From assembly GCA_016178135.1 (NCBI GenBank), contig JACOTW010000002.1:77043-141042 (forward strand): 64,000 nt of DNA, written 5' to 3'. The notes below the pieces were generated by a model. The model made no database searches. It had not been told where the DNA came from and worked only from the letters and a program-made list of their open reading frames with translations. Origin of the DNA: Candidatus Saccharimonadota bacterium (GTDB lineage Bacteria > Patescibacteriota > Saccharimonadia > Saccharimonadales > JACOTW01). The position numbers and the translations under genes were made by a program. Every line of letters starts with the position of its first letter. The stretch's first letter is position 1. Positions 2,325 through 56,205 of the stretch are shown in pieces.

Positions 2325-2484
2325 ACTCGACTTACGCAAAATCGTCCATTCCCAGAGTGAATTATCTTGAGCGAAAACTGTTTTGTCTGAAGGAGAGGTA
2401 GCCGTAGCTACATCGAGAGAAGAAAAACTGTTTGTAGCCGATAGAATTCGATCTGGGGATGGAGGAGTTTTGCATAAGTCGAGT
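2325..2484. mobile_element. MITE-like palindromic element, family A, full copy A1
   Basis: 160 bp with termini ACTCGACTTACGCAAAA / TTTTGCATAAGTCGAGT, flanked by AA/AA. Alignable end to end with 15984-16144. Confidence 0.85.
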
Positions 2485-7727: not shown

Positions 7728-7931
7728 ACTGGATCTGTTGCAAAACTCCTCCATCCCCAGATCGAATTCTATCGGCTACTCTTCGAGTCTGAGCCTGAGG
7801 GCTCACCTCAGAGTCGAAAACAAACAGTTTTTCTTCTTTCGATGTAGCTAAGGCTACCTCTCCTTCAGACAAAACAGTTTTCGCTCGAGATAATTCACTC
7901 TGGGAACGGACGATTTTGCGACAGGTCCAGT
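7728..7931. mobile_element. Family A element A2 carrying a nested ~42-bp palindrome
   Basis: A-type termini with AG/AG flanks. The extra segment TCTTCGAGTCTGAGCCTGAGGGCTCACCTCAGAGTCGAAAA (~7789-7830) is absent from other copies and is itself a hairpin. Confidence 0.8.
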
Positions 7932-10269: not shown

Positions 10270-11322
10270 ATGAAATATAATCTACTGGACTTACGCAAAG
10301 CTCCCTCATCCCCAGACCAACTAACCTCGGCTGCAAACAGTTTTTCCTCTCTCGATGTACCTTCAGGTACCTCTCCTTCAGATAAAACTGTTTTCGCTCG
10401 AGCTGATTTGCCCTGGGAACGAGGGATTTTGCGTAAGTCCAGTCCACTCGACTTACACAAAATCGTCCGTTCCCAGAGTGAATTGCCCGAAACACCAGTT
10501 GCGCGAAAGACTCCATCTGTTAAATACAGCTCGGAGCCCATATTATCTAATTCTGCGCATTTCTTAGTGATTGTAGGGCCAACGGCTAGCGGAAAAAGTG
10601 CGTTAGCGATGGAGCTAGCTCAAAAATTAAATGGCGAAATAATCTGCGCTGATTCACGAACTGTATACAAGTATTTAGATATTGGTACCGCTAAACCTAC
10701 CAAAAAAGACAGAAAACAAGTGCCACATCATCTTTTGGATGTAGTTAATCCCGACCAGAACTTTACGGTTGCAGATTTTAAGTTACTGGCCAATGAGGCC
10801 ATAGATAACATACAAAAACGAGGGAGATTACCTATTATGGTTGGTGGTAGCGGACTATATATTGATGCTGTACTGTTTGATTATCAATTTGCAGCTGAAG
10901 GCATGCCACGTAATCCGATCAACCCGAGACATCTTATGCAAAAAAGGTCACGCCAGTTACAGGTATTACGCTCGAACACTCTTATTATTGGTTTGGATGT
11001 ACCTCGAGACATCCTAAAACAAAGAATTACGGATCGTGTACAAGACATGGTTGCGGTTGGTTTTATCGAAGAAGTACAACATCTTATGAAAATATATCCC
11101 GAAAGCAAAGCCTTACTAGCCCCAGGCTACAAGGCTTTTAGTGAATATATTAATGGTAATCTTAGTATCGAAGATGCCGAGGCCTTATTTATTAAAAATG
11201 ACTACCAATTAGTAAGGCGCCAGATGACATGGTTTAAGCGCAATAAAAGTATTCATTGGATAAATAACCCCAGTAATTCTGTAGAAATTATCACAACGTT
11301 TTTGAGTAAAACAATAGTTTGA
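10270..11322 (+). CDS. miaA: tRNA dimethylallyltransferase whose only in-frame ATG lies upstream of a family A repeat
   Basis: MiaA core from 'LVIVGPTASGKSALAMELA' onward, with 'DSRTVYKYLDIGTAKP' and 'LPIMVGGSGLY'. The first ~95 codons are translated repeat A3 plus a partial copy. An in-frame GTG at ~10567 is an alternative start. Confidence 0.8.
   Translation: MKYNLLDLRKAPSSPDQLTSAANSFSSLDVPSGTSPSDKTVFARADLPWERGILRKSSPLDLHKIVRSQSELPETPVARKTPSVKYSSEPILSNSAHFLVIVGPTASGKSALAMELAQKLNGEIICADSRTVYKYLDIGTAKPTKKDRKQVPHHLLDVVNPDQNFTVADFKLLANEAIDNIQKRGRLPIMVGGSGLYIDAVLFDYQFAAEGMPRNPINPRHLMQKRSRQLQVLRSNTLIIGLDVPRDILKQRITDRVQDMVAVGFIEEVQHLMKIYPESKALLAPGYKAFSEYINGNLSIEDAEALFIKNDYQLVRRQMTWFKRNKSIHWINNPSNSVEIITTFLSKTIV
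10284..10443. mobile_element. Family A element A3 (full), followed by a ~45-bp partial copy at 10446-10490
   Basis: ACTGGACTTACGCAAAG ... TTTTGCGTAAGTCCAGT. It lies inside the annotated miaA ORF, in the same frame and orientation as the copies in priA and the ROK kinase. Confidence 0.85.
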
Positions 11323-15983: not shown

Positions 15984-16144
15984 ACTGGACTTACGCAAAA
16001 TCGTCCGTTCCCAGAGTGAATTATCTCGAGCGAAAACTGTTTTATCTGAAGGAGAGGTAGCCATAGCTACATCGAGAGAAGAAAAACCGTTTGTAGCCGA
16101 TAGAATTTGATCTGGGGATGGAGGAGTTTTGCGACAGGTCCAGT
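15984..16144. mobile_element. Family A element A4 (full)
   Basis: 161 bp, ACTGGACTTACGCAAAATCG ... TTTTGCGACAGGTCCAGT. It begins 9 nt after the M50 stop codon. Confidence 0.85.
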
Positions 16145-18260: not shown

Positions 18261-18305
18261 CTTTATGTCTACTGTCAACGTTTAATGTGATGGACGTTAA
18301 TTATT

Positions 18306-23464: not shown

Positions 23465-23625
23465 ACTGGACTTGTATATTGATCCCTCATCCTCAGGCCG
23501 ACTAACCTCGGCTACAAACAGTTTTTCCTCTCTCGATGTACCTCCCAGGTACCTCTCCTTCAGACAAAACTGTTTTCGCTCGAGCTGATTCGCCCTGGGA
23601 ACGAGGGATTTTGCGTAAGTCCAGT
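23465..23625. mobile_element. Family A element A8 (full)
   Basis: 161 bp with GT/GT flanks, the same subtype as A3. Confidence 0.85.
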
Positions 23626-24437: not shown

Positions 24438-24440
24438 TAC

Positions 24441-27933: not shown

Positions 27934-30096
<2,163 letters not shown>

Positions 30097-32928: not shown

Positions 32929-32976
32929 CAGAATGATATGTTGTAAATGCTACTGCTTATATAGCCAAAAATAGTA

Positions 32977-33096: not shown

Positions 33097-33299
33097 ATAT
33101 TGAACTATGTTTTGAAAATTAAGTCAGAATTCTAGATTTTCTAGATGTTCGACTGAAGTTCATGATTAGATTCTTTTTTGGAGAGTTTGATCCTGGCTCA
33201 GGATGAACCTCGCTCCGTAGGAGCGGTGAATTGTTGTCGGCGTTTACGCCGCCAGCGTTCATGTGGTTTATCTTGGCCTTGACCAGCCTTCATTTTTTT

Positions 33300-33346
<47 letters not shown>

Positions 33347-34254
33347 TACATGCAAGTCGAGCGGAAAGGTTCTGCACTTAGTATTTGACTTCGGTAAGTC
33401 CCGCATATGCGGGATACTGCCAAGAAACGTATTTTCTAGGCTAGAAAATACTGTCGAATTTTAAGTGTAGAATACTCGAGCGGCGGACGGCTGAGTAACA
33501 CGTAGGAACGTACCCCAAAGTGAGGGATAAGCACCAGAAATGGTGTCTAATACCGCATGTGATCTTCGGATTAAAGGATTTATCCGCTTTGGGAACGGCC
33601 TGCGCATGATTAGCTTGTTGGTGAGGTAAAAGCTCACCAAGGCGATGATCATTAGCTGGTCTGAGAGGATGACCAGCCAGACTGGGACTGAGAACGGCCC
33701 AGACTCCTACGGGAGGCAGCAGTAGGGAATTTTCCACAATGGGCGAAAGCCTGATGGAGCAACGCCGCGTGCAGGATGAATGCCTTAGGGTTGTAAACTG
33801 CTTTTATCTGTGAAGATTATGACGGTAGCAGATGAATAAGGATCGGCTAACTCCGTGCCAGCAGCCGCGGTCATACGGGGGATCCAAGCGTTATCCGGAA
33901 TTACTGGGCGTAAAGAGTTGCGTAGGTGGCAGAGTAAGTAGGTAGTGAAAGCGTCCCGCTCAACGGGATATACATTACCTAAACTGCTCAGCTAGAGGGC
34001 GAGAGAGGTTACTAGAATTCCTTGTGTAGGAGTGAAATCCGTAGATATAAGGAGGAATACCGATGGCGTAGGCAGGTAACTGGCTCGTCCCTGACACTAA
34101 GGCACGAAAGCGTGGGGAGCGACCGGGATTAGATACCCCGTTAGTCCACGCCGTAAACGATGGATGCTAGCTGTTAACCGTATCGACCCGGTTAGTAGCG
34201 AAGCTAACGCGTTAAGCATCCCGCCTGTGGAGTACGGTCGCAAGACTAAAACAT

Positions 34255-34290
<36 letters not shown>

Positions 34291-34393
34291 GTGTTCTTTA
34301 ATTCGATGGTAAGCGAAGAACCTTACCAGGGTTTGACATCCTTGGAATTTCTCTGAAAGGAGAAAGTGCTTTATTGAGCCAAGTGACAGGTGT

Positions 34394-34440
<47 letters not shown>

Positions 34441-34724
34441 TCAACGAGCGCAACCCTTATAGTTAGTTGGATTTTTCTAGCTAGACTGCCCCGGTAACGG
34501 GGAGGAAGGAGGGGATGATGTCAGGTCAGTATTACCCTTACACCCTGGGCTAGAAACACGCTACAATGGCCGGTACAAAGGGCTGCCAAGTCGCGAGACG
34601 GAGCAAATCCCATCAAAGCCGGTCTCAGTTCGGATAGCAGGCTGAAACTCGCCTGCTTGAAGCTGGAATCGCTAGTAACGGTAGGTCAGCACACTACCGT
34701 GAATACGTTCCCGGGTCTTGTACA

Positions 34725-35525
34725 AAATAAATGCGCCTGGCAGCGCATTGGACTAAGTGGTGTAAATCCACTTTCATAGCTGCGAGCAGGGCATCTCTGG
34801 TAACAGAATGCCTGAAGGGCTCTATATGCGAATAGTAGTCTTTACAATCAAAAGGCGCTTCGACCCTACAATGTGTACATAGGGGAAGAAGACAAGAAAA
34901 GCCTGTAAGGAATGCTAGAAATAGCCCAATGCGTGACCCAGGGAGATCCTGTTGTCGAAGAGTAATTGTTTCGCTGCATAAGCGAATAGACAGCAGGAAG
35001 TCAGCTGAGTTCATAGTATTTTTTATAGTAAAATGTAAAGAAGAAGGAATGAACCTTATGCTGAATCCACAATACATTGTTGGTTTTGTTGACGGAGAAG
35101 GGTGCTTTAGCATCACTATCAATAAAAACGGCGATAGGTTACCAGAAGTTCGTCTCATTTTTGAGATAGAACTTCGGGAAGATGACGAACCAATCTTGCG
35201 AGAGATCCGAAAAGTTCTTGATTGCGGTAATATTTACCACTTAGAGTACGAGCGTTATGCCAAATGGCGACCGCACGTTAAGCTTAAAGTCAGCAATTTT
35301 AATGACATATCGCAAAAGATTATTCCATTTTTTCAACGGTATCCACTTCAAGCAAAGAAGCGTTTGCAGTTTGAACAGTTTTGCTTAGTTGCAGAGCTTA
35401 TAAAGCGCAAACAACATCTTACAATTGAAGGAGTAGAGCAGATTCGAACCTTAAGGCATAAGGACTCGCGTAGTGCGTTAGACGCGCACGCTACGTGGGG
35501 AGCGCCGGAAATTACCCGAGCGCAA
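34725..35525 (+). mobile_element. Intervening sequence / intron-like insertion in 16S at about E. coli 1396/1397
   Basis: The flanks reconstruct the universal ...CTTGTACA|CACCGCCCGTCA... (the 1392-1406 primer site). It carries a homing-endonuclease ORF. Confidence 0.85.
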
Positions 35526-35546
35526 TCACCGCCCGTCAAACCATGA
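35049..35546 (+). CDS. LAGLIDADG homing endonuclease (single-motif type) encoded in the 16S insertion
   Basis: 'YIVGFVDGEGCFSI' is the LAGLIDADG motif, and 'IIPFFQRYPLQAKK' is paralogous to the 23S intron ORF at 40707. The frame runs 21 nt into the downstream 16S exon before its TGA. The alternative start is 35058. Confidence 0.85.
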   Translation: MNLMLNPQYIVGFVDGEGCFSITINKNGDRLPEVRLIFEIELREDDEPILREIRKVLDCGNIYHLEYERYAKWRPHVKLKVSNFNDISQKIIPFFQRYPLQAKKRLQFEQFCLVAELIKRKQHLTIEGVEQIRTLRHKDSRSALDAHATWGAPEITRAQSPPVKP

Positions 35547-35833
35547 AAGTCGCCAATACCTGACGTCTGCACTTGCTGCGGCCTAAGGTAGGGGAGATGA
35601 TTGGGGTTAAGTCGTAACAAGGTATCCGTACCGGAAGGTGCGGATGGATTACCTCCTTTCTAGGGAGAAAACTAGCATCATGCGGAGCAATCCTGTGAGA
35701 GCTAGGTCGGTCTTGGTGAGTTGTAATATCAGTACTGACAACTCACATATCCCGCATATGCGGGACAAGATTTCAGTTCTGTAACTACGAACTTGACGTT
35801 TGATTTGCACTATAAAAGTTTTTAAAATATAGA

Positions 35834-35860
35834 GAGCCCTCTGTTGAGGGTTCTTTTTGT
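35834..35860 (+). terminator. Rho-independent terminator after the 16S unit
   Basis: GAGCCCTC-TGTT-GAGGGTTC followed by TTTTTGTTT, just 3' of the processing stem. Confidence 0.6.
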
Positions 35861-35962
35861 TTGACAAAACGAAGACGAAGATTGACAAAATAACAAGCTT
35901 ATGCTAATATAAAAGTTGTAATATGTAATAATTGATTATTTTGTAAAAGGAAAAGCAATAAT

Positions 35963-36304
35963 ATGACACGTAAAGTAGAAGAAAGAGAACTATTCTATAG
36001 TATTGATAGTGAAGGAAATATTGATCCGAGACACAAGTTGGTAGGTGCCTTAGCTGCAGGTTTTGCCACAGCTTTAGAAGATAATGGTTACATATCAGGC
36101 GGGGTTTATCAAGCAGGCATGCAAGCTATTTCACAAGGAAGTGAATACATGGCAGGATCTGCATGGGTTGGTGTGGGAGGTAGTTGGGGTGATCAGGTTG
36201 GTTTTAAAACTGACCAATACCCCGTACTCAGCGAAGAACAACAACATGATCTTGACACGGCCATAGGACTTGCCAAAGATATTGCAGGATTAACCAAATT
36301 ATAA
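35963..36304 (+). CDS. Hypothetical protein (Gly/Ala-rich) lying between 16S and 23S
   Basis: 113-aa ORF with SD AAAGGAAAAG upstream. No motif is recognised. Confidence 0.45.
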   Translation: MTRKVEERELFYSIDSEGNIDPRHKLVGALAAGFATALEDNGYISGGVYQAGMQAISQGSEYMAGSAWVGVGGSWGDQVGFKTDQYPVLSEEQQHDLDTAIGLAKDIAGLTKL

Positions 36305-36381
36305 ATGTAAGTTATATTATCGGTGAGGGGTAATGTATTGCTATGATTGTGATGGCTGAAAGCACTAGCAAGGAAAAGTTT

Positions 36382-36768
36382 TTAGATTTTGTCTGTAACT
36401 TTTGTAAGCAATAATTTTGCTACGGTTTGACCTGCTTCAAGAGTTATTGGGTTTTGACTGGCATTGAATAATTCAAGTGTAAGTGGGTTGTTCGTCCCAG
36501 GCTCAATAAATGTAGAAGACTGCTCAACGGACAGACCTTGCCTAGCAAGCGAGGCGCGACCTTCAACAAACCCGCAAATGTCATTGCTAAGATGTATTGT
36601 TTCAGCCGTTTCTACTGTTAAGAATTCTTTTGGTGTTAGTAGCAAATCTGAACTACCGCCAAGATGTAAATCTACATGAGCTGGCCCCAACCATTCAGGG
36701 TTGAAAGGCTCAATTTTTATCTTATCAAGTTCAATAGCTGCAAGTATCGCTTTTTTCGAGAAGATCAT
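36382..36768 (-). CDS. dcd: dCTP deaminase / dUTPase-superfamily protein (short form)
   Basis: 'IKIEPFNPEWLGPAHVDLHLG' and 'GFVEGRASLARQGLSV...PGTNNPLTLELFN' match the dCTP deaminase beta-barrel signature. At 128 aa it is shorter than typical Dcd. Confidence 0.65.
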   Translation of the reverse strand: MIFSKKAILAAIELDKIKIEPFNPEWLGPAHVDLHLGGSSDLLLTPKEFLTVETAETIHLSNDICGFVEGRASLARQGLSVEQSSTFIEPGTNNPLTLELFNASQNPITLEAGQTVAKLLLTKVTDKI

Positions 36769-37056
36769 GAAGCTATTTTACAATATATTCAGTTAATAAG
36801 CATAAGCGTCCGGAAATTTATAATGGCTCGGTTGCAACTTTTGCCTTTGGCTGACTCACGGCCCCGACTTATCTCAGGTAATAACTTAGGGCGATGAGGG
36901 GCAAACGCACGACTACACCCGTTCTCGGAGTAAACTCCTGCGAGCGGGCTTGTCGACCGAGCCTCCGACTTCCGTATTGCTGAAGCAATCCGAGTCGGAG
37001 AACCGAGGCGCTTCATTCACCAATGAAGAAGCCCCACTTGCGTGGGGCATCTTCAT

Positions 37057-37133
37057 TGGTGGGCGATGAGGGACTCGAACCTCCGACCTCGTCATTATCA
37101 GTGACGCGCTCTAACCAGCTGAGCTAATCGCCC
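37057..37133 (-). tRNA. tRNA-Ile (anticodon GAT)
   Basis: Reverse complement: GGGCGAT TA GCTC AGCTGGTT AGAGC G CGTCA CTGATAA TGACG AGGTC GGAGG TTCGAGT CCCTC ATCGCCC ACCA. Confidence 0.9.
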
Positions 37134-37232
37134 ACATCATGTGGATTTTAAGATGTAAATGTATCTGCTAACTGAGGTGTTAACGACCGGTTAGCGTGCG
37201 TTATGCGCTATATAATTTTGCAGTAAACTGCG

Positions 37233-37260
37233 CCAGCTGAGCTAATCGCCCTTGGTGGAG
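37233..37260 (-). pseudogene. tRNA gene fragments: 19-nt copy of the tRNA-Ile 5' end fused to a tRNA 3' end (CTCCACCA)
   Basis: The minus strand reads ...CTCCACCA-A-GGGCGATTAGCTCAGCTGG and then diverges. The 19 nt are identical to tRNA-Ile positions 1-19, and CTCCACCA equals the tRNA-Ala 3' end. Confidence 0.6.
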
Positions 37261-37294
37261 ATGCTTTGCTTGCGCATCGCACCCCCATGTAATT

Positions 37295-37371
37295 TGGTGG
37301 AGCGTCGGGGACTCGAACCCCGGACCCCCTGCTTGCAAAGCAGGTGCTCTAGCCAACTGAGCTAACGCCCC
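37295..37371 (-). tRNA. tRNA-Ala (anticodon TGC)
   Basis: Reverse complement: GGGGCGT TA GCTC AGTTGGCT AGAGC A CCTGC TTTGCAA GCAGG GGGTC CGGGG TTCGAGT CCCCG ACGCTCC ACCA. The G3:U70 identity pair is present. Confidence 0.9.
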
Positions 37372-37429
37372 ACAGGAAATTACTCGAGTAATTCTACCTA
37401 AAAAGGCCCTTTATTACAAGGTTTACGGA

Positions 37430-37890
37430 TAACCCAACTTTCGCACTTATGGACATAACATTCCAGCTTGCCCTGATTCCGCACTCATAATAACGACTTT
37501 CGCACTTTTCCATCGCCCCCGTTCACACCAAACCGGCTGCAAACAGTTTTTCTGTCCTCGATGTAGCCACAGCTACCTCTCCGCCAGATAAAACTGTTTC
37601 GCTCGGTTTGATGCAACCTGGCATCGACAGATATAGTCCCCGCAAAACAAATTCGTGGGTTTTTGAAGCAATGATCTTTGAGCCAAAAGCTGACTTTTCC
37701 GAGAGAGACATATCCTTAGATACGTTGAACGAGGAAAGGCGGTTTTGGGCCAAAGAGGGTGATTCGAAAAGTCGGGAATTTGTTTTGCGGGGGCTATAAG
37801 TGCGAAACTCGTGATAATTAGCACTATTTGACTCTCTGACGAATTGATCTGGGGATGGGGGAGCTTTGCGACAGATTCAGTATAAGTCCA
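37430..37890. repeat. Nested mosaic of families D, A and B (full B6 at 37633-37796)
   Basis: In order: D-left fragments (ACTTTCGCACTTTTCCATCGCCCC), the A centre, a full B (beta) copy with TA flanks, the D-right end (AGTGCGAAACTCGTG) and the A-right end (TCTGGGGATGGGGGAGCTTTGCGACAG). Confidence 0.8.
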
Positions 37891-38160
37891 GCACACGTAG
37901 TGCCCAGATTATTTAGTTTCCGAAACGTAACACCTTCCAAAATGTTGCAAGTTTAACATCATAATGTGCTTGACCGCCTCTGTTATTGGTGCTAAGATAG
38001 TTTGGCTACTTGAGTTTAGGCACGAGGTTATTTGCATAAACCGCCAAGCTTCCAGCGTAAACTCAAGCTTCTGGAATAAACTAATCATATTTAGTGAGAT
38101 GTTCTTGAGTTAGTAATTTAACAATTTAGGTTTAAATTAAAGTATAAGGATGACGAGTTG

Positions 38161-38188
38161 TTGGTATTACCAATAACTAGTCAAATGT
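38161..38188 (+). other. 5' half of the 23S precursor processing stem
   Basis: TTGGTATTACCAATAACTAGTCAAATG is complementary (~24 of 27) to 43255-43281 (GCATTGACTAGTTATTGGTGTTACCAA). Confidence 0.65.
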
Positions 38189-38908
38189 ACATATGGGATA
38201 ATTTATCTCATATATCGTAAAAAGTTACATAAGCGCACACAAGGGATGCCTTGACGTGAGATACCGATGAAGGACGTGAGAAGCTGCGAAAAGCTTCGGG
38301 GAGCTGCTTACTAAGCTATGAACCGAAGATATCCGAATGGGGAAACCCGGCTAGAGTCATGTCTAGTCACCCGTAATTGAATATATAGATTACGAGGCGG
38401 GAACCAGGGGAACTGAAACATCTTAGTACCCTGAGGAAGAGAAAGTAAACAACGATTCCGGGAGTAGTGGCGAGCGAAACTGGAATAGCCCAAACCTTTT
38501 AAGTTTTTGTCTGCTCATTTATGGGCGGACAAATAAGTTGGTAGACGAATATTTAAAAGGGGTTGTGACACTACAAAAAACCTTTTGTAGGACCTGGACG
38601 TAGTCCAGATTCTACATAAGGCGGCAGGAGCTACCATTATTCTGCATAAGGTTAGAAATTTGCGAGGTGAGCAGAAGGAATTGGAAAGTTCCGCCAGAGA
38701 CGGTGAAAGCCCGGTATGCCAAACTTCGCAAACCTTATATTTGTAGAGCTTGTGCCGAGCACAAGCGAGTGAAAAGATAAAGGTCTTTTGGATTTTTGCT
38801 TTTAACTTGCTCGTGCGAAGTGCGAGCGATTGTCGAGTAGGTCGGGACACGTGAAACCCTGACTGAATCCGGGACGACCACGTCCCAAGGCTAAATATAT
38901 CTTGCGAT

Positions 38909-38939
<31 letters not shown>

Positions 38940-40548
38940 TAAAAGAACCCCGGAAGGGGAGTGAAATAGAACCTGAAATTGTGTGCGTACAAGGAGTCGG
39001 AGCCCCGCATATGCGGGGTGACGGCGTGCTTTTTGTAGAACGATCCAGCGAGTTAATTATTACGGCAAGCCTAAGACATCTGTCGGAGGCATAGTGAAAG
39101 CGAGGCTGAATAGGCCGTTAGGGATTTATCCCTTAAGTCGTGGTAATTAGACCCGAAACCAGGTGACCTAACCATGGGCAGGTTGAAGCGCAGGTAAAAC
39201 TGCGTGGAGGACCGAACCGTCGAGTATTGCAACACTCTCGGATGACCTGTGGTTAGCGGTGAAATGCCAATCGAACCTGGAGATAGCTGGTTCTCCTCGA
39301 AATAGCTTTAGGGCTAGCGTCGTACGGTAGCATGTAGGGGTAGAGCTCTGTTTCGGACTGGGGCGCGTAAGCGTACTCACCCTTGACAAACTACGAATAC
39401 TACATGTGGAACTACGGCAGTCAGAACGCCGGGGCTAAGCTCGGCGCTCGAAAGGGAAACAGCCCAGACCATCATCTAAGGTCCCTAAGTCTATGCTAAG
39501 TGGGAAACGAGGTGAGATTTCTTAAACAACTAGGATGTTGGCTTAGAAGCAGCCATTCATTTAAAGAGTGCGTAACAGCTCACTAGTCAAGAGATCTTGC
39601 GCGGAAAATGTAACGGGGCTAAGCATAGCACCGAAGATATGGATGTCACATTTATGTGGCGTGGTAGAGGAGCGTTGATATTGCATTGAAGTTGGACTGC
39701 GAGGTCTGGTGGAGCGGTATCAAGTGAGAATGCTGGAATGAGTAACCATAAGGCAGGTGAGAATCCTGCCCGCCGAAAGAGCAAGGTTTCCTGGGCCACG
39801 ATAATCGTCCCAGGGTTAGTCGGTCCTAAGCCGAGGCGCGTAGCGTAGGCGATGGACAACGGGTTAATATTCCCGTACTAGTCATACATTGTTTGAAATG
39901 ACGCATCATGTTAGCAGGAGCGAATTCATGGTTATATTCGTCTAATCTCGATTAACGTCGGGAGAATGAAAAGCCATTTTGGCTGATTCTTGTGAGAGTG
40001 GTGACTAGAAAATCTTTCAAACTTGTGTGTATGGCTATCCGTACCGCAAACCGACACAGGTGCTCAGGTCGAGTAGACCAATGGCGTACGAGTGATTCTT
40101 CGTTAAGGAACTCGGCAATTTAGCGACCGTAACTTCGGGATAAGGTCTGCCCCGTCACAGTGTCTATGACATTCGTGACTTGCCAGTTTTCTTTTTGAAA
40201 ACAATAGGTGTCTTGGCGTAAGTTTTTAACTTCTTACGTTCAAGCGCAAAGACGAGCATCCACCAACTGGTGGATTGAGAAAAGAAAGCTGACCCCATAG
40301 AATTACGTTTTAGTAAGTCTATTAAGTCAATTATCGTGGTAGATAATGTGACGGGGCCGCAGCTAAGGAGCCCACGCAACTGTTTACCAAAAACATAGGT
40401 CTCTGCTAACACGAAAGTGGATGTATAGGGGCTGACTCCTGCCCAGTGCTGGAAGGTTAAGGGGAGTGCTTTACGGTGCGAACTGAAGCCCCAGTGAACG
40501 GCGGCGGTAACTATAACCGTCCTAAGGTAGCGAAATTCCTTGTCAGGT

Positions 40549-41256
40549 AATAAACTTGCCTGAAAAGCAAAGCGATTTGCTTAGAGTAAACCAACTAATA
40601 ACGGGGAAATCTAAAACTGTTTTCAACAGTAATGACAATCCCGTGGCAATCATTCGCTTTACATAGTGAATGGAAGCCGTAACGACTAATCCGAAAGGAG
40701 AGGTACATGATGAAAAATGTACAATACGTTGGCTCTCGCCCAAAAAAGGAATCCATGGAGTTTGCTTGGTATATTACAGGTTTTACAGATGGAGAAGGTT
40801 GTTTTTCGGTTAGTTTTAACCAGCGTGCAAAACTGAAAACTGGTATCGAAGTGAGACCAAGTTTTTCTATTGCACAGAACAAACGCAGCCTACAGGTATT
40901 GAAAGACATTCATGCCTACTTCGGATGTGGCGCGATTCGTTTCAGTAAGCGCGATCAAATGTATAAATATGAAGTACGTTCGATTAGCGATCTGAGGTTG
41001 CGAATTATCCCGCATTTTCAGAAGTTTCCATTGTTAACCAGTAAAGCTAATGATTTTGAGATATTCGCCAAGGTATGTGAGCTGATTCATCAGTCGCATC
41101 ACCTGAATGCAGAATATCTTAAACAGATCATCATACAGAGTCATCTTATGAATAAGTCTGGAATCAGACGCAATAGCCAAGATGAGCTTCTAAAGATTCT
41201 GGCGAGATGAAAAGATAGTCTGATCTGCTTGGAAACGAGCAGCTAACTAAACTATG
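40549..41256 (+). mobile_element. Group-I-like intron in 23S domain IV at the L1951-type site
   Basis: The exons rejoin to CCTTGTCAGGT|AAGTTCTGACCCGCACGAATGG. The 5' exon ends in U and the insert ends in G, the group I splice-site rule. It carries a LAGLIDADG ORF. Confidence 0.8.
40707..41210 (+). CDS. LAGLIDADG homing endonuclease (23S intron 1)
   Basis: 'WYITGFTDGEGCFSVSF' and 'IIPHFQKFPLLTSK'. SD AAGGAGAGG is upstream. It is a paralog of the 16S-insert ORF. Confidence 0.85.
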   Translation: MMKNVQYVGSRPKKESMEFAWYITGFTDGEGCFSVSFNQRAKLKTGIEVRPSFSIAQNKRSLQVLKDIHAYFGCGAIRFSKRDQMYKYEVRSISDLRLRIIPHFQKFPLLTSKANDFEIFAKVCELIHQSHHLNAEYLKQIIIQSHLMNKSGIRRNSQDELLKILAR

Positions 41257-41352
41257 AAGTTCTGACCCGCACGAATGGAGTAATGATGTGGGCACTGTCT
41301 CAACGAAGAGCTCGGTGAAAGTGCATTGACGGTAAAGATGCCGTCTGTCCGC

Positions 41353-41384
<32 letters not shown>

Positions 41385-41830
41385 ACAGCTTGACATTGGG
41401 CATAGGGACAACATGTGTAGGATAGGTGGGAGACTTTGAAGCTTTGGCGCTAGCCGAGGTGGAGTCATCGGTGAAATACCACCCTTGTTGTTTTTGTGTC
41501 CTTACGGGGACCACAATTTGCAGAGCAAATTGAGTAATTAGTATGCAACATTTATCACATAAGATAAATTACGCAGTATTACTCACGATTGGTCTTCAAG
41601 TTCTGGTTCCTGGACAGTGTCTGGTGGGTAGTTTAACTGGGGCGGTTGCCTCCCAAAGAGTAGCGGAGGCGTTCAAAGGTTGGCTAGGTTCGGATGGAAA
41701 TCGAATCGATAGTGCATACGCATAAGCCAGCTTGACTGTGAGGCCTACAAGCCAATCAGACACGAAAGTGGGAGTAAGTGACCCGTTGTATCGGCCATTT
41801 ATGGCCATTGAACGTGGGATCGACAACGCA

Positions 41831-41863
<33 letters not shown>

Positions 41864-41999
41864 TATAGCGCCCAATAGTTCACATAGACGGCGCTGTTTG
41901 GCACCTCGATGTCGGCTCATCTCATCCTGGAGGGGGAGCACCTTCCAAGGGTCCGGCTGTTCGCCGGTTAAAGAGGTACGTGAGCTGGGTTCAGAACGT

Positions 42000-42765
42000 A
42001 AATTACATTGCGTTCTACCACTGAGAAGTGGTAAAGTACGGATGTACATCGCATCAATGGTACTAAATTCGACTAATATCGGTGAAACCTTACTTTAAAG
42101 TTTCGAACGACTTAAAAAGGCAATACCGAGGGAAGACGAAATCGAAAGTGACTCAAGAAGAAAAGGCCTACATAGCTGGATTTCTTGATGGTGATGGTTC
42201 AATCATGGCTCAATTAGTTTATCGTAAAGATTACAAATTGGGCTATCAGATACGAACCAGTATAGTTTTCTATCAGAAAACTAACCATCATGATTTCATC
42301 CTTTGGCTAAAGGACCAGTTAGGCTATGGTTATGTTCGCACGCGTCGTGACGGCATGAGCGAGTACGCCATAGTTGGCTTTAGGGAAGTTAGTCATGTGT
42401 TGACACTTCTGTATCCCTTTCTTCATCTCAAAAAAGCATTAGCTGAACGTGTTATTGCCCTTATAGAGCAACATCCGTCTCAGCGAAAACTAACTGCACA
42501 GCAATTGGTCGTTTTGAGTAAGCTCGTTGATAAAACAGCAAGTTTTAATTACTCTAAAAAACGAACTAATACGAGCATGCAAGTTATAGCTTTTTTGCGA
42601 GAGCACAAGATTTTTGTCCCCGTAGAGACTGATTCTGCCAAATAGACCGGGCAGATGAGATGGGACCCACAACTAATGGCCCATCATACGTCGACCCCTA
42701 GTCTCAAGCACATTGAGAAAGGGAGAAGATATAGTCCGTGCCATCAGAAATGGTGGAATTACACG
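42000..42765 (+). mobile_element. Group-I-like intron in 23S domain V at the I-CreI (Cr.LSU-type) site
   Basis: The exons rejoin to GGGTTCAGAACGT|CGTGAGACAGTTCGG. The 5' exon ends in U and the insert ends in G. Confidence 0.85.
42082..42645 (+). CDS. I-CreI-family LAGLIDADG homing endonuclease (23S intron 2)
   Basis: From memory of I-CreI: '[16 protein letters not shown]' matches 'YLAGFVDGDGSIIAQI', '[17 protein letters not shown]' matches 'GVGYVRDRGSVSDYIL', '[24 protein letters not shown]' matches 'LQPFLKLKQKQANLVLKIIEQLPS', and '[10 protein letters not shown]' matches 'NDSKTRKTTS'. The start codon is uncertain (GTG). Confidence 0.85.
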
Positions 42766-43478
42766 CGTGAGACAGTTCGGTTTATATCCGCTGTGGACGA
42801 TAGGAAATTTGAGGGAATTTGCTCGTAGTACGAGAGGACCCGAGTGAACGCACCGCTGGTGTACCAATTGTCATACCAATGGCATTGTTGGGTAGCTATG
42901 TGCGGACCAGATAAGCGCTGAAAGCATATTAAGCGCGAAACTGACCCCAAGATTAGATTTCCCGGAGATTTATCTCTAGAGGACCCTGAAAGACGATCAG
43001 GTTGATAGGCGCAAGGTGAAAGTGCGGTAACGTATTGAGCCGAAGTGTACTAATAGTCCCATCGACTTTTTACGACCCATGAAATGTGCGCCGCTAATCT
43101 GGACACTTGGCTTTGCCAGGCCTATAGATTAGTTTTTGACACAAGATGTGATATTTTGTTTATGATACTAAAGGAATAGTATTTTTGTACAACTCCTCTA
43201 GGCTTATTTACATAACGTTGATTTTGTAATCAAACGCACACCTCATGGTGAAGTGCATTGACTAGTTATTGGTGTTACCAAGAGGTAACACACGATCCTT
43301 ATACGGCATTTATTGAAATATATCACAAGTGGTATAGGCATTGTATAGACTATATCGTATATGGTATATTCATGGACATCAACAGAGCGCCTACGGTGCG
43401 GAATATGGAATATTGAAGATGCTTCAAAAAAGCTAACTTCTACCTTCTACCAATTTCCGTGTCATCGAGACGCGAAAA

Positions 43479-43590
43479 TTGGTGCCCATGGCGCGAGGGA
43501 AACACCTGTTCCCATCCCGAACACAGCAGTTAAGCCTCGCAGCGGTTACAATACTTGGGTTTTAACCCTGGGAAAATAGCACGGTGCCAA
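43479..43590 (+). rRNA. rrf: 5S rRNA
   Basis: TTGGTGCCCATGGCGCGAGGGAAACACCTGTTCCCATCCCGAACACAGCAGTTAAGCC...GGTGCCAA. The conserved CCCATCCCGAACACAG loop C/helix III block is present, and the ends pair. Confidence 0.9.
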
Positions 43591-43600
43591 ATTATATAAT

Positions 43601-43986: not shown

Positions 43987-44157
43987 ACTGGACCTGTCGC
44001 AAAATCCCACTGATGAAAGGTAAAACAGTAGCAGCAACCATGATTTTTCTTGTATTTATTGTGCCAAAAGGTACCTAAACGGTACATTTTGAAGCAAAAA
44101 ATACAGGAAAAGTGGTCGACCTACTGTTTTAGCCATCAGTGGGATTTTGTCAGGCTC
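43986..44157. mobile_element. Palindromic element, family G (A-like terminus, distinct interior)
   Basis: The left end ACTGGACCTGTCGCAAAATCCCACTGATGAAAGGTAAAACAGTAG is an inverted repeat of the right end CTACTGTTTTAGCCATCAGTGGGATTTTGTCAGG. It fills the gap between two convergent genes and contains the stop codon of the 44150 ORF. Confidence 0.7.
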
Positions 44158-44599
44158 TTAGCCGGTATGGGCGACAAAACCTAGAACTAGTAACGCGCCA
44201 TACAAGGCCACAGTTTAGGCAGTAATAATGACGACTATCGCTTTGTAAGCCGTTACTAGTGCACTCTGGACAAGTGCTACGAGCATCTAGCCAATCTCTG
44301 TATGTATCAATGCAGTCTTGTATGTGATTTTTATCTATGATTATGTCATAATTTGCTGCCAGTTTTTCGGCTTTTGACCAAGCGGCTACCTCTAACATCA
44401 AAAGTTCCATGTCTGTTTTATAGATTGTATGGTTGAGGAGTCCGTGAGCAAGCTCGTGCATTAGTGACCACTCTGCTACGCTGGAATATTCAGATTTATA
44501 TATGATTTTCTTCTCTTCGGGTGACCAGCAAAATGCTTCGCCAGACACAAAACTAAGTTCTGTAAAATCTTTAGCCAGTCTATCAAGTAGATTTTGCAT
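44150..44599 (-). CDS. Putative zinc metallopeptidase-like protein (HExxH) with a C-terminal zinc ribbon
   Basis: 'LMHELAHGLL' is an HExxH motif, and 'CPEC...(14)...CLNC' looks like a zinc ribbon. It overlaps the upstream ROK gene by 17 nt, suggesting an operon. Confidence 0.5.
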   Translation of the reverse strand: MQNLLDRLAKDFTELSFVSGEAFCWSPEEKKIIYKSEYSSVAEWSLMHELAHGLLNHTIYKTDMELLMLEVAAWSKAEKLAANYDIIIDKNHIQDCIDTYRDWLDARSTCPECTSNGLQSDSRHYYCLNCGLVWRVTSSRFCRPYRLRA

Positions 44600-45563
44600 G
44601 ACTATCCCTTATTAATTCATAACAACCATATATTACAGCTTCTTCTGGCCGTTGTGCTTGTAGAATAGGAGGCATAGAAATTAATGGCATCTTGTATTTT
44701 TTTAGTTCGTTAACTAAAAAATCAGCAAATCTATCATAATAAGATGCCACCCCACCACCTAGAATTACTACTTCTGGCTCAAATAGTGATATGAAATTAA
44801 TAAGTCCTACGGATAAGTCTCTGGCAATAATCTGCCAAATTTTAGGATCTTCTATTTCGCTCGCTCTCTTGCCAAAACGTCTTACGATTGCTTTGCCTGA
44901 AGCAAAATTTTCCCATAACTCCATAGCTCCATCGTGCTCAACTAGCAATCCTTTGCCACCACTATCTCCTAATGATAAATCAATTACTCCACTTGTTACC
45001 AGGGCAGCCCCTATACCGGTTCCTATGGTTATGTATAGTACTTTATCGTAGTCTTGCTTAACAAGAATCGCTTCAGATAGGGCTCCTAGTTTTGCATCGT
45101 TTTCTACGGCAACAGGACACTTAACAATTTTTTCTAGATCAGATTGAATAAATTTATTTTTCCAGTTTAGATTCCCGCTACTTTTAAGTTTGCCTTGCTC
45201 TCTATCTAAGACACACGGGATACCTACACCGGCCCCCAGAAAACTATTAGTCTGTAGAACAGATATACTTGACTTACGCAAAATCGCCCGTTCCCAGGCT
45301 AAATCAGCTCGAGTTGGGAGTGGTTTGGCTGAAGGAGAGGTAGCCATAGCTACATCGAGAGAAGACAGACTGCTACCAGCCGAGATGAATTGGTCTGGGG
45401 ATGGGGGAGCTTTGCGTAAGTCCAGTATATTACTCCCCAGTTCTATTAAAAAATCATCATAGTTCTTGATCGTAGGGAATCGTAGTTTTTTTATTATATT
45501 ACCCATATCATCAAAAGAGGCAACAAGTGTTTTTGTCCCTCCAACATCTACAGCCAAATACAT
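44583..45563 (-). CDS. ROK-family sugar kinase (glucokinase-like) interrupted in frame by a family A repeat
   Basis: 'MYLAVDVGGTKT', 'GAGVGIPC', 'ENDAKLGALSE', 'ITIGTGIGAAL' and 'ILGGGV'. Residues ~46-99 ('ILDLRKAPPSPDQFISAGSSLSSLDVAMATSPSAKPLPTRADLAWERAILRKSSI') are the translated repeat A12. Confidence 0.85.
   Translation of the reverse strand: MYLAVDVGGTKTLVASFDDMGNIIKKLRFPTIKNYDDFLIELGSNILDLRKAPPSPDQFISAGSSLSSLDVAMATSPSAKPLPTRADLAWERAILRKSSISVLQTNSFLGAGVGIPCVLDREQGKLKSSGNLNWKNKFIQSDLEKIVKCPVAVENDAKLGALSEAILVKQDYDKVLYITIGTGIGAALVTSGVIDLSLGDSGGKGLLVEHDGAMELWENFASGKAIVRRFGKRASEIEDPKIWQIIARDLSVGLINFISLFEPEVVILGGGVASYYDRFADFLVNELKKYKMPLISMPPILQAQRPEEAVIYGCYELIRDSHAKST
45267..45426. mobile_element. 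Family A element A12 (full) inside the ROK kinase ORF
   Basis: 160 bp with AT/AT flanks. The internal ~125 bp differ at one position from the intergenic copy at 48627-48788, which is inverted. Confidence 0.9.
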
Positions 45564-48626: not shown

Positions 48627-48788
48627 ACTGGACCTGTCGCAAAGCTCCCCCATCCCCAGACCAATTCATCTCGGCTGGTAGCGGTCTGTCTTCTCTCGAT
48701 GTAGCTATGGCTACCTCTCCTTCAGCCAAACCACTCCCAACTCGAGCTGATTTAGCCTGGGAACGGGCGATTTTGCGACAGGTCCAGT
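48627..48788. mobile_element. Family A element A11 (full), preceded by a 21-bp A-end fragment (48603-48623)
   Basis: 162 bp with AT/AT flanks. It is the near-identical inverted partner of A12. Confidence 0.9.
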
Positions 48789-50950: not shown

Positions 50951-51037
50951 TAGTCAGTTGTGCTCTGTTGCTATGAAAAGGTGTGAAAGTCCTGTATATA
51001 TAGGACTTTTACACTTTTTTGTAGATATAGCCCCCGC

Positions 51038-51190
51038 AAAACAAATTCACGGCTTTTTGAACCGCCCTCTCCGGCCAAAAACTGTCTTTCCTCACTCACC
51101 TTATCTAATGATATGCTTCCCTCAGAAAAGCCAGTTTTTGACTCGAAGATCATCGGCTCCAAAACCCCCGAATTTGTTTTGCGGGGGCTA
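51038..51190. mobile_element. Family B (alpha) element, full copy B3, supplying the priA stop codon
   Basis: Same TIRs as B1/B2 and TA flanks. The last 3 nt (CTA, 51188-51190) are the reverse complement of the priA TAG stop. Confidence 0.85.
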
Positions 51191-53308
51191 TAACAGGGTA
51201 GCGGGAAGACTTTTGATAATTTCAAGCAATTTCCCTCGACTTCTTGATTTCACTATCAATTGCCAATGATATTTGCCTTGTTGTTTTTCATGAAATGCCG
51301 GTGATGGTCCGATGATTGATAGAGATAATTGTTTTTGCTGGAGTTCTAATAGTAATTTTTCCGAGGCTTTTTTAGCAGATTGCTGGGTGGCACGTTTGCA
51401 AGATAGTTTGAGAAGATAACAGAAGGGAGGGAATATGAAAATTTCACGTTCATGCAACTGTTGTTTATAAAATTCTTCATAATTTTTAGTTATTGCAGCG
51501 TTAATGATCGGGCTTTCTGGATGATATGTTTGTATTATCAACATACCTTTAAGGTGTCCGCGCCCTACTCGACCACTGACTTGGCTGATCATCTGAAATG
51601 TTTTTTCTTCAGCGGTATAATCTGGAATATATAAGCCGGTATCAGCCACAACTATGCCCACTAAACTTAATCGAGTCAAATCAAGGCCTTTTGAGAGTAT
51701 TTGTGTCCCGACCAATATATCTACGGCTCCACTTTCTATAGTTTCGTAATGCATTTCTAGCCGATCGGCCTTAAGATTGTCGCCGTCAAACCTTTGCACC
51801 CTTGCCTCGGGCAGTAGTCTTTTTATTTCGGCAACAATAAGTTTTGTGCCTATGCTCTTGAAGATAACTTCAGTACCGTGACAGTTTGGGCAATTAGATG
51901 GAGTTTGTTCGCTATGACCGCACGTATGGCATAAAGCCAAATGAGTATCACCATGATAGGTAAGTGGAAGGTCGCAACGTGGACAAAGTAGCTGCCAGCC
52001 ACAACTTTGACACAATATTATTCGTGCCGTACCCCGTCTATTTAAGAAAAGCAAAGACTGTTCCTTGTTTTGTAGGCGTAAGCGCATTTCTTTTATAAGA
52101 TCATCGGATAGCCATTTTGATTGTGAAAAATGAGCCTTATCTTGTAGTGCTATTAATTTGGTGACGGAGCCTGCTTCATTAGACTTATGCAAAATTGTTT
52201 GTTCCTGGGGCGAATCAGCTCGAGCGAAAACTGTTTTGTCTGAAGTAGAGGTACCTGAAGGCACATCGAGAGAAGAAAAACTGGTTGTAGGCGAGGTTAT
52301 TCGATCTGGGGATGGGAGAGCTTTGTTTAAGTCCAGTTTAGCGGTCTCTGTGGCTGCTCTTGTCATGCGGACGATTGGCAGTCCCTTCGCCTTAAAGGTG
52401 AAGTAGTCATTGATTAGGGGGGTAGCGGAGCCAAGTACTAGTCGCGCACCTTCTAATTGGGCTAAACGTGCTGCAACTCGTGTTGTTTGATAGTTGGGGG
52501 CTTGTTCTTGCTTGTATGCTGTGTCATGAGCCTCGTCTACCACAATAAGTCCTATGTTTGACAAAGGGGTGAACAATGCCGATCGAGGTCCAACTACCAC
52601 TAGTGGCTCCTCGGCCTCCAGAATCTTTAACCAGGCATCACGCCTTTGTGCCGAGGTTAGCGCGGAATGTATACCGATAATTTGATCAGGAAATGCTACT
52701 TCCAGCATTTTTATTAGTTGAGGCGTAAGACCGATTTCGGGTGTTAATATGAGTACTGAACGACCATTTTGAATCTGTTCTTTTGCTAATTCAATATATA
52801 CCCTGGTTTTGCCTGTGCCGGTATCGCCATGCAGCAATATGGGTTCTTGTTTTTTTGATGCTTGTATTTGTTGTAGTGCAGATTGCTGATCAGGCGTAAG
52901 CGTTGGGAGCTTTTTTTCAGGGGGTGGAGGAGTTTCGGGTAAGTCGTCGAGTATAGGGATTTTGCTTGGGCCCGGTGTCGGTCTAGCTTGTTGCTGGATG
53001 CCACTCGGTAAAAATAATTGTATCAAGACCCCAGAAGGAGCTGGATAATAAGATCTAAGCCACCCAAAAAGCTTAAACACCGAAGAAGGCACAGGATTTT
53101 TACCTATTTGCTTCAATATAGATTGAGTTTTAAAAGCTGGCTTTTTAACTTGAGCATTAACGATACCAAGTACTACTTGTCGCCGTAGACCTACAGTAAC
53201 AACAGAGCCATTTTCTATCGATATGTCGCTTTCGTAAATCAGAGGCTTATCACCATGATATCTAGGGCTACTTATCCAAACTTCGTAGTACGACTTTATT
53301 GTAGGCAT
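51188..53308 (-). CDS. priA: Primosomal protein N' (replication restart helicase PriA) interrupted in frame by a family A repeat
   Basis: 'LLHGDTGTGKT', 'VVDEAHD' and a Cys-rich zinc module 'CQSCGWQLLCPRCDLPLTYH...CHTCGH...CPNCHG', then 'GTQILSKGLD' and 'QVSGRVGRG'. The segment 'LDLNKALPSPDRITSPTTSFSSLDVPSGTSTSDKTVFARADSPQEQTILHKSN' is the translated repeat A13. Confidence 0.9.
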   Translation of the reverse strand: MPTIKSYYEVWISSPRYHGDKPLIYESDISIENGSVVTVGLRRQVVLGIVNAQVKKPAFKTQSILKQIGKNPVPSSVFKLFGWLRSYYPAPSGVLIQLFLPSGIQQQARPTPGPSKIPILDDLPETPPPPEKKLPTLTPDQQSALQQIQASKKQEPILLHGDTGTGKTRVYIELAKEQIQNGRSVLILTPEIGLTPQLIKMLEVAFPDQIIGIHSALTSAQRRDAWLKILEAEEPLVVVGPRSALFTPLSNIGLIVVDEAHDTAYKQEQAPNYQTTRVAARLAQLEGARLVLGSATPLINDYFTFKAKGLPIVRMTRAATETAKLDLNKALPSPDRITSPTTSFSSLDVPSGTSTSDKTVFARADSPQEQTILHKSNEAGSVTKLIALQDKAHFSQSKWLSDDLIKEMRLRLQNKEQSLLFLNRRGTARIILCQSCGWQLLCPRCDLPLTYHGDTHLALCHTCGHSEQTPSNCPNCHGTEVIFKSIGTKLIVAEIKRLLPEARVQRFDGDNLKADRLEMHYETIESGAVDILVGTQILSKGLDLTRLSLVGIVVADTGLYIPDYTAEEKTFQMISQVSGRVGRGHLKGMLIIQTYHPESPIINAAITKNYEEFYKQQLHEREIFIFPPFCYLLKLSCKRATQQSAKKASEKLLLELQQKQLSLSIIGPSPAFHEKQQGKYHWQLIVKSRSRGKLLEIIKSLPATLL
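52178..52337. mobile_element. Family A element A13 (full, diverged) inside the priA ORF
   Basis: ATTAGACTTATGCAAAATTG...GGGATGGGAGAGCTTTGTTTAAGTCCAGT. It is colinear with A1 and A4. Confidence 0.85.
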
Positions 53309-53960: not shown

Positions 53961-54036
53961 ACTGGACCTATCGCAAACTCCTCCATCCCCAGATCAACTA
54001 ATCTCGGCTGGTATCAGTCGGTATTTTCTCGATGTA
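53961..54036. mobile_element. Family A half-copy (A10), ending at the central TA
   Basis: ACTGGACCTATCGCAAACTCCTCCATCCCCAGATC...TTCTCGATGTA is followed directly by a family B terminus. Confidence 0.75.
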
Positions 54037-54186
54037 TAGTCCCCGCAAAACAAATTCGTGGGTTTTTGAAGCAATGATCTTTGAGCCAAAAACTGACTTT
54101 TCCGAGAGAGACATATCCTTAGATACGTTGAACGAGGAAAGGCGGTTTTGGGCCAAAGAGGGTGATTCGAAAAGTTGCGGGGGCTA
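54037..54186. mobile_element. Family B (beta) element with a ~12-bp internal deletion near the right TIR (B7)
   Basis: TAGTCCCCGCAAAACAAATTCGTGGG...GATTCGAAAAGTTGCGGGGGCTA, followed by TA. Confidence 0.8.
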
Positions 54187-55992: not shown

Positions 55993-55998
55993 TAGTTA

Positions 55999-56044
55999 TA
56001 GCCCCCGCAAAACAAATTCGGAGGTTTTGGAGCCGATGATCTTT
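55999..56044. repeat. Family B (alpha) left-end fragment (B8)
   Basis: TAGCCCCCGCAAAACAAATTCGGAGGTTTTGGAGCCGATGATCTTT, starting 6 nt after the map stop codon. Confidence 0.7.
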
Positions 56045-56046: not shown

Positions 56047-56205
56047 CACGAGTTTCGGACTTTTCCATCGCCCCAGATGACACCTGACAGGCTACAGCCG
56101 CTCACTCCTCACTCAACATAGGCTATGGTCCAAGCCTCCCTCGGATTGAACAACTGTAACCAGCCAGCTACCACCTGGTATCAATGGCTAAGTGCGAAAC
56201 TCGTG
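56047..56205. mobile_element. Family D element, copy D2
   Basis: CACGAGTTTCGGAC ... GTGCGAAACTCGTG, nearly colinear with D1. It is followed by TATACT and the ftsA ATG. Confidence 0.8.

Follow-up and report, generated by a model that had tools for sequence, protein, structure and literature searches.

How does a palindromic repeat come to lie within the reading frame of an otherwise ordinary sugar kinase gene, and what becomes of the protein encoded by that gene? The question is raised by the ROK family sugar kinase gene in a stretch of 64,000 nucleotides (hereafter the window) of contig JACOTW010000002.1, part of a metagenome-assembled genome (MAG) of a Candidatus Saccharimonadota bacterium (Saccharibacteria). 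A first-pass annotation, made from the letters of the window alone, had pointed to a repeat of 160 bp, copy A12 of a repeat family named family A, inside the open reading frame (ORF) of the kinase, and had likened its behaviour to that of the Rickettsia palindromic elements (RPEs). We consider it probable that a family A element, a transposable element of the miniature inverted-repeat type (MITE), inserted into the kinase gene with the frame preserved and that the ORF encodes 54 extra residues.

Results

The kinase gene and its insert

The 326-aa ORF, which lies on the minus strand (Table 1), matched the PF00480 profile with E 6e-31 (108 bits), kinase residues 105-319 corresponding to profile positions 54-292 in the Pfam scan. 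Its earlier description as an otherwise normal ROK kinase was thus borne out. The NCBI entries for the protein, from two MAGs (MBI1856866.1 and the identical MBI3337748.1), carry the name 'ROK family protein [Candidatus Saccharibacteria bacterium]'. The PF00480 profile, the phosphate-1 motif, the catalytic region and the ASKHA fold (Foldseek E 2e-20) all place it in the ROK family. Residues D6-G8-G9-T10 of the DxGGT phosphate-1 motif and E154-N155-D156 of the catalytic region (ExDxN/ENDA) occupy invariant columns in an alignment of 113 sequences, and every column invariant among the orthologues is retained in the insert-bearing kinase. When ROK fructo-/glucokinases from PDB were aligned by sequence search, they covered kinase residues 4-32 and then again those from about residue 123, leaving about 53 residues in surplus. 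Another ORF of 149 aa (44150-44599, minus strand) overlaps the stop codon of the kinase gene; it weakly matches the motif region of IrrE/M78 peptidases (HELAHGLLNH) as well as a C-terminal zinc ribbon.

Translated in frame, A12 forms kinase residues L47-I100 (LDLRKAPPSPDQFISAGSSLSSLDVAMATSPSAKPLPTRADLAWERAILRKSSI), rich in Ser/Ala/Leu/Pro, and is situated between D6-V-G-G-T10 and GAGVGIPC, as first proposed. The junction peptides of the insert are ...FLIELGSNILDLR and SSISVLQTNSFLGAGVGIPCVLDR, and an internal peptide is APPSPDQFISAGSSLSSLDVAMATSPSAK. The in-frame repeat was confirmed, while its size and ends had to be corrected from 160 bp (45267-45426) to 158 bp, 1 nt less at each end. The identical 4-mer TATA adjoins it on both flanks. 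Because the 158 bp of the element and the 4 bp of one TATA add up to 162 bp, exactly 54 codons, an insertion of this length cannot shift the downstream frame; the earlier estimate of about 54 residues added by read-through proved right. Removal of A12 and one TATA in silico gave GGG AGT AAT ATA TCT GTT (...ELGSNISVLQTNSF), with the same spacing as in the orthologues. Deletion of the 162 nt would leave AATATATCT in the 272-aa reconstruction, and the predicted sequence of the empty site is GGGAGTAATATATCTGTT.

A12 is an imperfect palindrome along its whole length, with a predicted RNA fold of -65.3 kcal/mol (z = -4.55 against shuffles). A 35-nt A12 probe occurred once in the window, 0.00 occurrences being expected by chance, and blastn with the whole insert region detected a family of copies across the window. 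A scan of the region for promoters and terminators gave nothing above the shuffled background. The closest relative of A12 is copy A11, which has the inverted orientation and is 99% identical over the internal 140 nt, with one mismatch (blastn E 1e-71). The near-identity of this non-coding copy had been recognized in the first-pass annotation, whose coordinates for it (48627-48788) are refined in Table 1. Both ends of A11 have the variant CCTGTCG in place of CTTACG. Judged by the one mismatch in 140 nt that separates it from the intergenic A11, the A12 insertion is very recent.

The homologue search returned 3074 sequences at E <= 1e-10; the best 120 were nearly all about 270-280 aa long, and the modal orthologue length was 272 aa. 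All 111 Saccharibacteria/Patescibacteria ROK orthologues among the 113 aligned sequences have a gap across residues 47-100, which is the clean indel of about 54 aa that had been predicted. The only other carrier in the alignment, P0001, is 99% identical and comes from the sister strain GCA_040960765.1, whose locus is 99.3-99.9% identical to the window. Misassembly of a repeat might be suspected, as the window comes from a MAG and repeat copies often end contigs in related MAGs; however, both flanks of A12 continue the same gene in the same frame, the TATA duplication is perfect, and the same junctions are present in independently deposited assemblies (MBI1856866.1, MBI3337748.1 and GCA_040960765.1). 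We therefore attach practically no weight to an assembly artefact. The insert is best described as mobile DNA and not an ancestral protein domain, in agreement with the original suggestion, because the family has terminal inverted repeats (TIRs) and 4-bp duplications, is present both in non-coding DNA and in genes unrelated to each other, and has relatives in other species.

Anatomy and distribution of family A

For the window, the locus of the sister strain and loci of other genomes, the ends of the copies were set with an nhmmer profile, which was used instead of a fuzzy regular expression for the terminal repeat that turned out to be far too permissive. Family A elements terminate in CTGGACTTACGCAAA at both ends, with CTGGACCTGTCGCAAA as a variant; their modal length is 158 bp, variants are 159-161 bp long, and they carry no transposase gene. 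The 64 kb of the window hold seven full-length copies (158-160 bp), one copy of 202 bp and several fragments. The flanking 4-mers of 17 full copies, including two sister-strain duplicates of window copies, are all of the type TNNA; they are identical in 11 of the 17 and match at three of the four positions in the other six. The duplications seen were TATA, TTTA, TCTA, TAAA, TACA, TAGA and TGTA. A 2-bp TA duplication of the IS630/mariner kind was ruled out, since the TAAA, TGTA, TACA, TCTA and TTTA flanks agree over 4 bp and only 158 + 4 preserves the ROK frame.

When the GTDB species representatives were scanned with the core of the element, 16 loci were detected in three other Saccharibacteria MAGs. 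A metagenome scan with the 15-nt terminus gave mostly chance matches, as expected for a 15-mer; it also gave MITEs, 158-161 bp long and more diverged, that share these ends and have TNNA-type flanks, two of eight being identical over 4 bp. No copy of the element was found in a scan of viral contigs.

At least seven complete insertion sequences (ISs) of 1080-1125 bp from metagenome contigs have the identical 15-mer CTGGACTTACGCAAA at both ends. The 343-aa transposase of one of them (L020) scored 382 bits with NCBIfam NF049921 (IS701 family; cut-off 250), and the remaining ISs encode homologues of this transposase with 54-89% identity (tblastn). Direct repeats of 4 bp are listed for the IS701 family in a table of PMC6352166. 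These ISs thus share the terminal 15 nt with family A, and the tabulated 4-bp repeat also agrees; they differ from it in carrying a transposase, which family A lacks, and in that the recovered ISs have no clear duplication, unlike family A. An IS701-type transposase acting in trans is the most likely agent of family A mobility, because the family A termini are identical to those of the 1080-bp IS701-family ISs.

Family A thus combines small size and absence of a transposase with TIRs, a target-site duplication (TSD) of fixed length, dispersed copies and an autonomous IS, on metagenome contigs, with the same ends, and no other lineage compared has the element at the ROK or the PriA site. Presence/absence polymorphism between strains was observed directly only for the companion family B. 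By these features, family A is classified as a MITE, a non-autonomous DNA transposon. The long hairpin, precisely in frame, might alternatively suggest an intron- or intein-like segment removed after transcription or translation to give a normal mature kinase, all the more so as the rRNA operon of the same genome has self-splicing-type elements (LAGLIDADG ORFs and a group II D1-D4 match). However, Rfam reported nothing on the element at gathering thresholds, and no Rfam family was found in the region even at E <= 1. Moreover, 158 nt is far below the size of group I and group II introns, an intein would be longer than the 54-aa peptide, the usual junction residues are absent as judged by eye, and the TIR and TSD architecture and the IS701 ends mark a DNA transposon. 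Removal of the segment is accordingly very improbable.

In-frame copies in PriA and other genes

The kinase is not the only gene affected. The PriA gene of the window carries a family A copy between its two helicase lobes, in the same orientation and frame as in the kinase. PriA from PDB was matched with E 1e-95, leaving about 59 surplus residues (query 320-400 against chain 344-365), and the comparison with 11 orthologues revealed a clean 54-aa indel. This copy, whose termini are decayed, shows 33 differences from the consensus of the family, and it is still 158 bp long and free of stop codons; its divergence indicates that it is older than A12. PriA is normally indispensable.

Beside this, the PriA gene of the window differs from that of the sister strain by an 86-nt deletion adjoining a family B copy (window 51188-51230; L001 4110-4197). 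The deletion removes the C-terminus NWTYDIDPTNLL, which is near-invariant in orthologues, and the protein now ends with ...LPATLL from repeat-flanking DNA.

In other Saccharibacteria, HolB (delta-prime) of another MAG (L013) contains a nearly identical peptide after the AAA+ domain. Fmt (L014) has the peptide of the antisense frame inside its C-terminal domain, where alignment with the window's own Fmt gives a gap. Repeat-derived sequence was found in the C-terminal tails of TatC (L009 and L128). In an M1 peptidase (L011) and a response regulator (L084) the element is at the 5' end of the open frame, as in MiaA of the window; in these three frames it is probably a leader sequence or a false extension. 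The MiaA copy is probably a leader, since the P-loop of MiaA is at about residue 100.

When 1.84 billion representatives were searched exhaustively with a profile, the peptide was detected in only 71 cluster representatives, most of which are 45-110-aa 'hypothetical proteins', i.e. translated repeats. Ten long peptide-bearing proteins were scanned with Pfam; six of them have domains (FemAB, TatC, guanylate kinase (Gmk), AAA_18 kinase, HAD and PIG-L) and four have none. A word-indexed peptide search returned only short spurious ORFs and missed the ROK and PriA proteins, being thus unfit for counting genic insertions.

Frame compatibility

The phase-0 frame, read from the first base of the element, opens with CTG GAC TTA CGC (LDLRK). 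In the sense orientation it is open in 11 of the 12 copies of 158 bp, the single stop-bearing copy comparing with about 5.8 of 12 expected from a simulation in which random substitutions were put on the consensus in the number observed for each copy. In the antisense phase-0 frame, three of the 12 copies have a stop, against 7.2 expected from the same simulation. The other frames have up to five stops, and all but one of them have at least one. Length plus 4 is divisible by 3 in 17 of 23 full copies, with modes of 158 and 161 bp (nominal binomial P 8e-5); owing to the shared ancestry of the copies, both the simulation and the binomial figure overstate independence. Copies of 159-160 bp were found only outside long open frames. 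These data are only suggestive of selection for coding compatibility.

Other repeats and features of the window

The coordinates of the main features are collected in Table 1.

Table 1 Coordinates of the kinase and PriA genes, of family A and family B copies and of end-matched insertion sequences (positions in the window unless a locus is named)
Feature	Position	Strand	Basis or remarks
ROK family sugar kinase ORF, 326 aa (orthologues ~272 aa)	44583..45563	-	ORF list, Pfam, PDB, AlphaFold2/Foldseek
Family A MITE copy A12, 158 bp	45268..45425	-	bounded by terminal repeats CTGGACTTACGCAAA / TTTGCGTAAGTCAAG; frame 0 stop-free; hairpin
Target-site duplication TATA, one copy	45264..45267	.	identical 4-mer on both flanks
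Second copy of the target-site duplication TATA	45426..45429	.	identical 4-mer on both flanks
Copy A11 of family A, 160 bp, intergenic between IF-2 gene and DUF5663 gene	48628..48787	+	flanks CATA/TATA
PriA (primosomal protein N') ORF, 706 aa (orthologues ~646 aa)	51188..53308	-	Pfam PriA domains
Family A copy in frame in PriA, between two helicase lobes	52179..52336	-	profile, frame, alignment
Family A copy, intergenic, TSD TTTA	2326..2483	-	nhmmer profile
Family A copy with internal insert, 202 bp, TSD TAGA	7729..7930	+	nhmmer profile
Family A copy at 5' end of MiaA open frame (10270-11322)	10285..10442	+	Pfam, frame analysis
Family A copy, 159 bp, intergenic	15985..16143	-	nhmmer profile
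Family A copy, 159 bp, intergenic, TSD TGTA	23466..23624	+	nhmmer profile
Family B copies	1636-1802, 16516-16656, 24273-24439, 27934-28074, 32800-32966, 37632-37798, 51026-51192, 54035-54175, 55997-56044; L001 6696-6862		
IS701-family insertion sequence, termini CTGGACTTACGCAAA	L020 2101-3180		also L107, L129, L078, L028, L071, L039

Another family of MITEs, family B, has the termini TATAGYCCCCGCAAAACAAATTC and is about 165 bp long. In the sister strain, the A11 homologue has a family B copy precisely within its central loop, accompanied by a TA duplication, and this copy is missing from the window at 48703. Family B is recently active by this measure, because its presence/absence polymorphism separates strains with about 99.5% identity. 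In three chimeras (16433-16656, 32727-32928 and 53962-54175), one half of a family A element is joined to family B at the same central TA; either the centre of family A is a hotspot for family B, or the chimera moves as one element. The GyrB open frame (27973-28100) has its first ATG inside a family B copy, and the FtsA (56125-56205) and MiaA (10270-10442) open frames start in or cross repeats. These three may be false N-terminal extensions, or their start codons may be supplied by the repeats.

Two inverted repeats of 173 nt, 98% complementary (17519-17691 and 22736-22908), flank about 5 kb with RNase P RNA (17894-18262), a DUF4434 gene and a ComM/Mg-chelatase-like gene; the pair may be a third repeat family or a composite-transposon-like arrangement. 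The repeat finder also detected family D8, about 159 nt long, in three copies (19352-19510, 24442-24600 and 56047-56205), two of them 97% identical. In the rRNA operon (33296-43592), the 23S rRNA spans 3884 nt against 2925 nt in the model, with LAGLIDADG ORFs at 40707-41210 and 42082-42645. Just after the 16S gene there are a LAGLIDADG ORF (34929-35546) and a group II intron D1-D4 match (34967-35049), and the space from the 16S to the 23S gene holds two tRNA genes and MITE copies. Sequence repeated elsewhere in the window makes up about 6.9% of the 64 kb (4.4 kb in 30 intervals, a few of which are tRNA genes), which looks like a high repeat load for a Saccharibacteria genome.

Discussion

The boundaries of A12, its 4-bp duplication, the preservation of the frame, the absence of the segment from orthologues and the same kind of event in other genes were all observed directly in the compared DNA. 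The following course of events explains them best. An IS701-type transposase supplied in trans would move the family A element, and its integration at a TNNA site, TATA in the kinase, duplicates 4 bp and adds 162 bp. In the kinase, the element landed in its stop-free phase, so that the ORF stays open and encodes a kinase whose N-terminal lobe has an extra 54-residue segment within helix alpha1, after the phosphate-1 loop and before strand beta4. Under purifying selection, only those insertions would persist that are in phase 0 and at permissive sites. Translation of the mRNA across the element, and tolerance of the segment by the protein as a flexible excursion, are inferred.

The AlphaFold2 model of the kinase (113 sequences) had a predicted local distance difference test score (pLDDT) of 87.9 and a predicted template modelling score of 0.82, with 94-98 in the core blocks, and Foldseek matched the model to ROK kinases (E ~2e-20, TM-score ~0.7). 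The means of ten-residue blocks over residues 41-100 were 36-73, residues 49-75 being below 50. As to the question, raised at the outset, whether the insert is a surface loop, the low-confidence segment is compatible with a tolerated surface excursion, of which it is no proof; it splits a helix and does not sit in a loop.

Several points weigh against a functional kinase with a tolerated insert, or against the proposed route of its arrival. The insert interrupts helix alpha1 (helix 35-42, insert, helix 99-102, strand 110-115). AlphaFold is insensitive to destabilizing insertions and does not judge stability, and the low pLDDT of the insert may only reflect its two informative alignment rows. 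As the insertion is recent, the intact ORF says little about selection for the kinase. The hairpin of the insert (-65 kcal/mol) could hinder translation or attract RNase III, and the loss of the PriA C-terminus in the window strain may indicate a lineage tolerant of damaged genes. As to the transposase, tblastn detected no IS701 transposase in the window or in loci L001-L017 from the MITE-bearing genomes, a clear 4-bp duplication of their own was not evident for the end-matched ISs, and these ISs are on contigs of other GC content (35-56%), none of them clearly from Saccharibacteria.

The most serious alternative is that the insertion inactivated the kinase gene and that we see a young pseudogene, whose frame is open merely since the element is stop-free and adds a multiple of three, with no time for decay. 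The single mismatch between A12 and A11, the difference of less than 1% between the insert-carrying strains, the interrupted helix alpha1 and the absence of the conserved C-terminus from PriA of the same strain would all fit such a history. On the other hand, the far older copy in PriA, a protein that cells can hardly do without, is still exactly 158 bp long and stop-free despite a simulated 64% chance of a stop; HolB and Fmt of other species also hold in-frame copies; the copies of 159-160 bp, which would break the frame, were seen only outside long open frames; and the orthologue-invariant residues of the kinase are all intact. Taking both sides together, we regard a young pseudogene as unlikely, and prefer the insertion of a family A MITE with a frame-preserving, translated outcome.

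In-frame insertion of MITEs as such is already known from Rickettsia, Coxiella, enterobacteria and cyanobacteria; the Saccharibacteria case appears to be unreported. No report of in-frame palindromic or MITE insertions in Saccharibacteria, Patescibacteria or the candidate phyla radiation (CPR) was found in the searchable literature, which lacks most subscription journals, and the initial impression that the phenomenon had not been described there agrees with this. The in-frame fusion of MITE-borne frames with bacterial genes was called 'not unusual' (PMC10969869). In the passages of the same review that deal with them, RPEs (Ogata et al. 2000, 2002) figure as an extreme case of MITE-gene fusion, and their inserts are argued to be tolerated surface excursions. 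As portrayed in these passages, RPEs resemble family A in being palindromic, in measuring about 150 bp, in having a conserved frame free of stops and copies also in non-coding DNA, and in their in-frame presence in unrelated housekeeping genes of a small-genome, host-dependent bacterium (PMC10969869). In contrast to RPEs, which were compared by description only, family A is found in another phylum and has 15-16-nt terminal repeats, a 4-bp TNNA duplication and IS701-matching termini. The likeness to RPEs proposed at the outset thus applies to behaviour, as the in-frame copies in PriA, HolB, Fmt and TatC show, and not to the type of element, family A being an IS701-type MITE and, as far as the descriptions go, not a relative of RPEs.

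MITEs that overlap or extend genes include Coxiella QMITE1 and QMITE2 (PMC5896051) and the intragenic ERIC, BOX and Anabaena elements (PMC10969869, PMC2229807, PMC3184786). Like family A, these are non-autonomous elements with TIRs, some copies of which form in-frame fusions or C-terminal tails, here in TatC, Gmk and FemAB. Nested insertion is also common to both, IS1111 having inserted into Coxiella QMITE2 (PMC5896051) and family B into family A. Family A differs from those MITEs in that several of its insertions are inside conserved domains of core genes (ROK, PriA, HolB and Fmt) and not in hypothetical genes or at 3' ends, and in that element plus duplication is a multiple of three.

Whether this last property has a deeper meaning is a matter for speculation. 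One idea, which we hold only tentatively and consider rather doubtful, is that family A is a MITE lineage adapted to living inside genes: in both modal size classes, element and duplication together are divisible by three (158 + 4 = 162 and 161 + 4 = 165), and its phase 0 is stop-free in both orientations, diverged subfamilies included. Such a lineage might persist in streamlined CPR genomes, where intergenic space is scarce, as tolerated disordered insertions in core genes. If true, it would provide a recurrent supply of new protein segments.

The results have a practical consequence for the annotation of CPR MAGs, since dozens of 45-110-aa 'hypothetical proteins' are translations of the family A repeat, and real genes, too, in some cases owe an N-terminal extension or a C-terminal tail to the repeat. 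A transposase type (IS701-type, with a 4-bp duplication) can be proposed for family A, unlike for RPEs as reviewed in PMC10969869. The ROK kinase and PriA, with and without the 54 residues, represent testable cases of the tolerance of core enzymes to sudden insertions. In a broader sense, the occurrence of selfish DNA inside protein-coding genes would be extended from intracellular bacteria of the Rickettsia type to the ultra-small, episymbiotic Saccharibacteria.

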